Assembly (NCBI GenBank): GCA_038889075.1
Contig: JAWAHS010000002.1
Span: 204,930-268,929 of the forward strand
Length of the DNA stretch: 64,000 nt
Direction of reading: 5' to 3'
DNA from: Ignisphaera sp.
Lineage (GTDB): Archaea > Thermoproteota > Thermoprotei_A > Sulfolobales > Ignisphaeraceae
The position numbers and the translations under genes were made by a program. Position 1 is the first letter of the stretch. Every line of letters starts with the position of its first letter. Under the pieces are notes generated by a model that was not told the DNA's origin, did not search any database, and saw only the letters and a list, made by a program, of their open reading frames with translations. Positions 36,465-37,239 of the stretch are shown here, piece after piece.

Positions 36465-37050
36465 GCTTCTTTTTACTCTTTAGAAAGTCGACTGTTTCTA
36501 ATTCCTCACTAAGTATTTCCTCCTCAACCTTAATCTCTCTCAGACAGCCTAATTCCTTTAGCTTTAGAAATACATTTCTAACTGATAGGAAGACCTCATC
36601 CTCACTTTTAGCTCCTGTTATGACCATCTTACCACTACTGAATATTAGTAAAACCACATGCGGATCTGTCAGTCTATATATTAATCCTGGGAATTGCTCT
36701 GGTTCGTACATGGTGTTCTCCAGGAGAAATGCAACTTTTTCGAGCATTATCTCAGCACCAAGATTTGCAGATGCTACAATATTCTGTATCTGTATTCTTG
36801 GTTTAGATGTTATAGGCACATCGTATTTTATCAACATTCTCACAATCTTTTTAACAGCCTTTATAAGATCTGGAGTACTTTTAGCTCCTGTTACAACCAT
36901 TCTACCCGATCTGAATACTAGTGCTGTAACCTTTGGATTGTCTAGCCTTAGTACGAGGCCGGGGAATTGATCAGGATCGTATTCGACATTTGGCAATACC
37001 TTATCTAGATAGTCCAGATCTATATTCTGTTCTATGGATACCGTGGCCAC
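36439..37050 (-). CDS. tbp: TATA-box binding protein (true start probably upstream of 37050)
   Basis: Two TBP repeats (YDPDQFPGL...[19 protein letters not shown]...YEPEQFPGL...[13 protein letters not shown]) and an acidic tail. The conserved VKVENI precedes the GTG in frame. Confidence 0.97.
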
Positions 37051-37239
37051 TATGTTTTCAACTTTTACTCCTATGTATGGATTGTTTAACTCAGCTAGAT
37101 ACTTTTTGTAAAATGCTTTGTAGTAGGAATCAAGTGATTGAATAGTCCCACACTCTTATTTAAATCTCTACACGGTTTATAAAGGTATATTTAAGCCTAT
37201 TTATAAGCTCTATTTATATCAACTATGTAAATCCTCTTT

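Follow-up and report, generated by a model that had tools for sequence, protein, structure and literature searches.

The sole tbp gene of an Ignisphaera genome appears to begin at a conserved near-cognate ATT codon

The window, by which we mean the whole stretch of 64,000 nucleotides of Ignisphaera sp. DNA that was analysed, carries a tbp gene on its minus strand. The open frame extends from a TAA stop at 37158-37156 to a TAG stop at 36441-36439 and comprises 238 codons. A Pfam search matches the product twice to PF00352 (E 2.4e-63, 210 bits), and both repeats exceed the curated PF00352 cut-off in a family search of the genome. This is the sole TBP of the genome (25 contigs, 99.6% complete): a protein search gave one place, and the family search, which returned the two repeats of tbp and one sub-threshold match of 16.7 bits, revealed no second tbp. 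A convergent ORF of 518 codons on the plus strand (34908-36464) shares its last 26 nt (36439-36464) with the 3' end of tbp. The features of the gene are as follows.

37176..37183, minus strand: TATA-like box TTTATAAA, 40 to 33 nt upstream of the ATT, with a putative promoter role
37144..37155, minus strand: SD-like leader of 12 nt, GAGTGTGGGACT (consensus GAGNGTGRGANT), with a GTG core at 37151-37149
37141..37143, minus strand: proposed initiation codon ATT, near-cognate, put forward on score, conservation and SD spacing
37072..37140, minus strand: N-terminal extension (codons 2-24), specific to the Ignisphaera family, predicted alpha-helix
37072..37074, minus strand: ATA, an alternative start rejected for its score, its duplex and its lack of conservation
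36547..37071, minus strand: TBP core, two PF00352 repeats (Pfam), pLDDT about 89-96 in the structural model
37048..37050, minus strand: GTG inside ENIVAT, rejected as a start
36439..36546, minus strand: C-terminal tail, acidic then basic with an aromatic motif at the end, and the stop TAG (36441-36439)

The preliminary description of this DNA had claimed that the gene lacks a canonical start codon for the conserved N-terminus of TBP, and a reading of the minus strand bears this out. The frame opens with TAA (37158-37156) GAG TGT GGG ACT ATT (37143-37141) and runs on to GTG (37050-37048); the 35 codons between the TAA and this GTG include not a single ATG, GTG or TTG in the TBP frame. The GTG is the first canonical codon in frame and, as had also been proposed, falls inside the conserved first beta-strand (S1), where it codes for the V of ENIVAT. 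Both near-cognate candidates that had been named, ATT 37143 and ATA 37074, are found at these coordinates, and the out-of-frame GTG (37153, 37151) and TTG (37133, 37061) codons that were said to overlap the leader are present as well. A start-free run of 35 codons is not improbable by itself; it is the conserved coding nature of the run, as judged by comparison with relatives, that exceeds chance.

Forty-one genomes of relatives were searched with the 238-residue frame. Matches were found in 15 of the 16 genomes of the same genus, the one miss being a 75%-complete genome, and most of these matches align from residue 1, at 76-97% identity. Among 11 Ignisphaera species, changes in codons 2-28 are distributed 23:13:40 over the three codon positions and those in the TBP core 14:5:92, a pattern that is absent from the two shifted frames. 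In 21 family sequences, conservation of residues K14, Y15, D18 and L19 is 90% or higher. An AlphaFold2 model built on the family alignment (mean pLDDT 85.2) has a helix at residues 2-19, followed by a strand at 25-36. Block-mean pLDDT rises from 66 (residues 1-10) to 90 (residues 11-20), and values fall below 50 at residues 207-229 and 232-234 in the C-terminal tail, which is conserved across the Ignisphaera family. Because the frame aligns from its first residue at this level of identity, third-position changes dominate, and a helix is predicted for residues 2-19, the leader upstream of GTG 37050 is, on comparative grounds, conserved coding sequence. The TBPs of the Ignisphaera family carry both the N-terminal helix (motif KY..DL) and the long C-terminal tail, and both are absent from the TBPs of the Sulfolobaceae.

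An alignment of tbp 5' regions from related genomes had been suggested as a check for a conserved ATT or ATA. At the corresponding place an Ile codon (ATH; ATT 13, ATA 7, ATC 2) is found in every one of the 22 distinct, uncut loci from the Ignisphaera family. Eleven of the 22 contain no canonical start in the open frame, and in the other 11 there are canonical codons farther downstream or upstream, some of which are used in annotations. For the Sulfolobaceae, all 41 tbp loci were fetched from a set of 41 species genomes (at least 90% complete, 12 genera). ATH is found behind GGTGR in 40 of these genomes (ATC 16, ATA 14, ATT 10) and ATG in one, and the open frame is free of canonical starts in 30 of the 41. 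Across the wider order, 19 of 87 uncut TBP loci, the Ignisphaera locus included, have no canonical start, and all of these belong to the Ignisphaera family or the Sulfolobaceae except L054; as related loci are kin, such counts overstate the independent support. Most other families of the order have ATG, GTG or TTG 8-10 codons before ENIVAT.

GTGR precedes an in-frame ATH in 22 of 22 family loci, with a GTG-to-ATH spacing of 8 nt in 20 and 9 nt in 2, and in the Sulfolobaceae the spacing is 9 nt (18 genomes), 10 nt (22) or 8 nt (1). As a gauge of selection against ATG, third-base changes at ATH were counted by eye on the tree; they number about 11, of which 1 is to G where one third would be expected (P ~0.08, not significant). 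Judging from these alignments, ATT, ATA or ATC at a fixed SD distance is conserved in two archaeal families.

In eight relatives (L001, L002, L006, L010, L012, L013, L014 and L016) an in-frame stop lies directly or one codon upstream of GAG NGT GRG ANT ATH, which places the start within those five codons; in the present genome the in-frame TAA is four codons upstream of ATT 37143. The first four codons of this motif undergo radical residue swaps (Cys/Ser/Arg, Glu/Gly, Thr/Ile/Asn) with their nucleotides nearly fixed, and variation takes on a protein-like pattern from ATH onward. Among the 11 Ignisphaera species, positions -12 to -1 vary at 4 of 12 sites, and nearly every site farther upstream varies.

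A survey of start regions in 1,444 non-overlapping ORFs of the genome revealed a G-rich GGTG signal between -12 and -8. Where the upstream space was free (957 ORFs), TATA-like hexamers are most frequent at -44 to -39, without a leaderless-type TATA peak near -30. Most messages of this genome, the survey suggests, carry leaders of about 12 nt that amount to little more than the SD site. A TATA-like element is found at a similar distance in tbp orthologues, and for ATT 37143 the spacings to the SD-like block and to the TATA box are both usual for this genome. With a position matrix built from 607 SD-led starts (background, 20,000 random positions), the initiation region of ATT 37143 reaches 7.1 bits, which puts it in the top 0.08% when ranked against random positions and at the 90th percentile among the 607 starts; the peak spans 37143-37140 and fixes the site to about 3 nt only. 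For the out-of-frame GTGs the scores are 0.4 and -2.3.

The 3' end of the 16S rRNA is GGATCACCTCCT, and the SD-like motif in this species is GUGGG, not GGUGA. The predicted duplex between leader and rRNA is ordinary, not strong, at -6.8 kcal/mol compared with a genome median of -6.7. No Rfam match was obtained for the leader, two sub-threshold snoRNA-like matches being located upstream, inside the neighbouring gene, and the leader folds no better than shuffled sequence does (z = 0.26). The 16S 3'-terminal motif, together with the next 64 bases, occurs twice on one contig, 227 nt apart (G000:C19, minus strand, offsets 5066 and 5293 of the reverse complement); this doubled stretch may be an assembly duplication.

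The conserved ATH codon, the SD-like block and the TATA distance together argue that translation quite probably starts at ATT 37143-37141 behind the SD-like leader, giving a TBP of 234 residues. ATA 37074-37072 had been named as a second candidate. A start there would yield a 211-residue protein (MGVKVENI...) and would make untranslated leader of the 23 upstream codons; the codon is also near-cognate and keeps strand S1 whole, and this form is on record for the same genome (P0005, 211 aa) and for a relative (P0006). However, 99% or more of the 607 SD-led starts exceed its matrix score of -6.9, and its duplex reaches -4.6 kcal/mol. The codon is not conserved, relatives reading I or V there, including GTA and GTC, and the 23 upstream codons vary as coding sequence in which K14, Y15, D18 and L19 are retained. 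We regard this start as unlikely.

Initiation at GTG 37050 would use the only ATG, GTG or TTG in frame, and it is the start that gene callers yield (P0007-P0010), for a TBP of 203 residues without the first half of strand S1. It is nevertheless very improbable: the segment VKVENI of the conserved strand would be deleted, the score is -0.2 and the duplex -2.2 kcal/mol, and in most relatives the codon is GTA, GTT or GTC, so that it is not kept as a start.

Ribosomes might instead begin at the out-of-frame GTG at 37151-37149, possibly at a leaderless 5' end, and reach the TBP frame by a -1 shift. This GTG is the same in each of the 22 family loci, the TATA-like box lies about 30 nt before it, and two deeper relatives (L020 and L022) have an in-frame GTG. 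Such a route is nonetheless extremely doubtful. The spacing from GTG to ATH is 8, 9 or 10 nt depending on the lineage, leaving no fixed frame relation, and in several loci in-frame stops intervene between the two (e.g., GTG ATT TGA ATC and GTG GTC TAA ATA). Moreover, relatives share no slippery sequence or heptamer, the genome has no leaderless TATA peak at -30, and its SD consensus is built around GTG. A play of one or two bases in the spacing is typical of an SD site, so the invariant GTG would be the ribosome-binding core and not a start. A programmed -1 ribosomal frameshift was rejected on the floating spacing, the intervening stops and the lack of a slippery site. Of the two mechanisms offered in the preliminary description, non-canonical initiation is thus supported, at ATT 37143, whereas recoding is not.

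DNA contigs from three metagenome studies, none of them flagged as a possible source of the assembly, cover the 5' region: X6 and X10 span 36618-37400 and X9 spans 37066-37400. They contain no indels, and no changes at 37141-37200; the nearest difference is a third-base, Glu-to-Asp change at 37090. An error of sequencing or assembly behind the missing start, or decay of tbp into a pseudogene, is hardly credible, since the assembly may be in 25 contigs but the contigs of these three other studies match it with no indel over 37066-37400, the layout is common to 22 family loci and 41 Sulfolobaceae genomes, many of them single-contig, and tbp is single-copy and strongly conserved. The sequencing error for which the preliminary description had left room is therefore excluded by three independent DNA assemblies and by the shared layout, and neither an ordinary start in relatives nor a second tbp was found, so that the conditions named there for refuting the claim do not apply. 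Judged by these comparisons, the anomaly is real and tbp is an ordinary intact gene with a conserved near-cognate ATT as its probable start. A metatranscriptome contig (X15) covers 36674-37128, extending upstream of both ATA 37074 and GTG 37050; unlike the DNA runs, X15 has no contig over 37142-37400, and these contigs from a single study define neither a 5' end nor certain transcription.

If translation starts at ATT 37143, the tbp message would carry hardly more than 12 nt ahead of it, essentially the SD-like GAGUGUGGGACU, given the likely transcription start. Pairing of this leader with the 3' end of 16S rRNA would bring the ribosomal P site onto AUU 37143-37141, where the initiator tRNA (Met-tRNAi) would decode the near-cognate AUU with a third-position mismatch. 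Positioning of the 30S subunit by the SD leader, with the initiator tRNA reading AUU, would follow the established course of SD-led initiation. The first 24 residues of the 234-residue product would form the family-specific N-terminal helix before strand S1.

TBP is required for the transcription of every archaeal gene. In bacteria, infC (IF3) is an essential single-copy gene with a conserved near-cognate AUU start behind an SD site; this AUU has been demonstrated to serve autoregulation, since IF3 itself rejects non-canonical starts. By analogy, tbp may be likened to infC as an essential, single-copy gene with a conserved AUU-type start behind an SD site. It differs in that TBP is a transcription factor with no evident autoregulatory loop, and the archaeal discriminator would be aIF1. 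In S. solfataricus, aIF1 is described as disfavouring non-canonical starts (PMC6237735). Because near-cognate codons are normally discriminated against by aIF1 in that description, output from AUU would be low and factor-sensitive, and it is plausible that the AUU start keeps TBP synthesis low or sensitive to the stringency of initiation factors.

A more far-reaching idea, which we put forward tentatively and consider rather doubtful, is that the ATH codon of tbp is an old translational throttle, kept by selection and common to the Ignisphaera family and the Sulfolobaceae, that ties TBP abundance to start-codon stringency. If so, aIF1 and aIF2 activity, and perhaps temperature or growth state, would set the abundance of TBP, and global archaeal transcription would have a translational control point comparable in its logic to the AUU of infC. 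A weak tbp start would also be a simple point at which TBP dosage is controlled, open to testing in the genetically tractable Sulfolobus. If TBP synthesis needs a weak start across an order of model hyperthermophiles, many TBP entries would be wrong at the N-terminus, and gene callers restricted to ATG, GTG and TTG would truncate tbp and other genes in these lineages.

In several other genes of this genome, too, the Pfam domain starts ahead of any canonical start codon. They encode a HAD hydrolase (ATA), thymidylate kinase (CTG), cytidylate kinase (CTG), an aldo-keto reductase (ATT), an ERCC4 nuclease (ACG) and an Mpt_N protein (ATT). In five of them (L113 HAD, L114 thymidylate kinase, L115 cytidylate kinase, L112 aldo-keto reductase and L118 ERCC4) a strong SD-like motif is followed by ATA, ATT, CTG or ACG. 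The HAD hydrolase (G000:C2:326029-326703, minus strand) has its DLDGT catalytic motif at residues 8-12 and its first canonical start at residue 44, and most likely starts at an ATA behind AGGTGA, as read from the sequence. The corresponding codon is ATA, ATA, ATT and ATA in four close species and ATG, ATG and TTG in three more distant ones. In the thymidylate kinase gene (G000:C1:245258-245863, plus strand), CTG lies behind GGTGGTGG and the first canonical codon (residue 33) comes after the P-loop; the place of this CTG is taken by TTG, ATG or GTG in nine orthologues of the genus.

The HAD and thymidylate kinase cases, whose orthologues have a canonical codon at the same place, indicate that near-cognate starts do work in this lineage, though their turnover is usually fast. 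These near-cognate codons are young, genus orthologues having ATG, TTG or GTG, whereas the ATH of tbp has been kept across two families. Genome-wide, there is no enrichment of ATH among high-scoring in-frame codons (ATT 10/280, ATA 12/455 and ATC 2/174, compared with 200/9897 overall). The remaining genes of this kind are those for cytidylate kinase (L115, on C1), the aldo-keto reductase and ERCC4 nuclease (L112 and L118, on C3), the Mpt_N protein (L116, on C4) and a tRNA-guanine transglycosylase (L119, on C12). In the last, too, the Pfam domain begins before the canonical start, and no clear near-cognate codon was seen there.

The S. acidocaldarius TBP is an orthologue with a comparable 5' end: in AAGGTGA TAT ATT ATA CCT an SD site is followed by ATH, and there is no canonical start in frame. 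The products of L175 and L176 are 100% identical to PDB 1MP9 chain 1mp9_A, which is the S. acidocaldarius TBP, and in a phmmer search the S. acidocaldarius orthologue matches solved archaeal and eukaryotic TBPs. The UniRef entry for this protein, P0122 (MIPDEIPYK...), begins at the ATT of TAT ATT ATA CCT in L175. The PDB chain, however, starts with YIIPDE, which is the entire open frame after a TGA, so the two records place the N-terminus differently. The Ignisphaera protein has an N-terminal helix of 24 residues and a long C-terminal tail, basic and aromatic, both of which the S. acidocaldarius TBP lacks; the SD site of the S. acidocaldarius gene (AGGTGA) is a better match than the GTGGG of Ignisphaera tbp. 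Among titles and the beginnings of abstracts, nothing was found on a non-canonical start of tbp. Near-cognate starts as such are already known, and one is implicit in the S. acidocaldarius database entry; the order-wide conservation in tbp appears undiscussed in print.

Public TBP annotations disagree on the N-terminus. The NCBI entry P0002 (Ignisphaera, 234 aa), from a relative with 97% identity, begins at the equivalent of ATT 37143, and P0013 starts at an upstream ATT; P0007 (203 aa) starts at GTG 37050 and reads MATVS.... For Metallosphaera, Acidianus and S. solfataricus, the TBP entries have their first residue at a different ATH codon or within the strand. Five entries, namely P0130 (S. 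solfataricus), P0128 (Metallosphaera), P0114 (Acidianus manzaensis), P0133 (Sulfodiicoccus) and P0035 (an Ignisphaera MAG), begin at or inside S1 with MENIVATV (P0130 and P0035), MSIENIV, MISIENIV or MINIENIV. Going by the reading frames, these five probably lack 10-30 true N-terminal residues.
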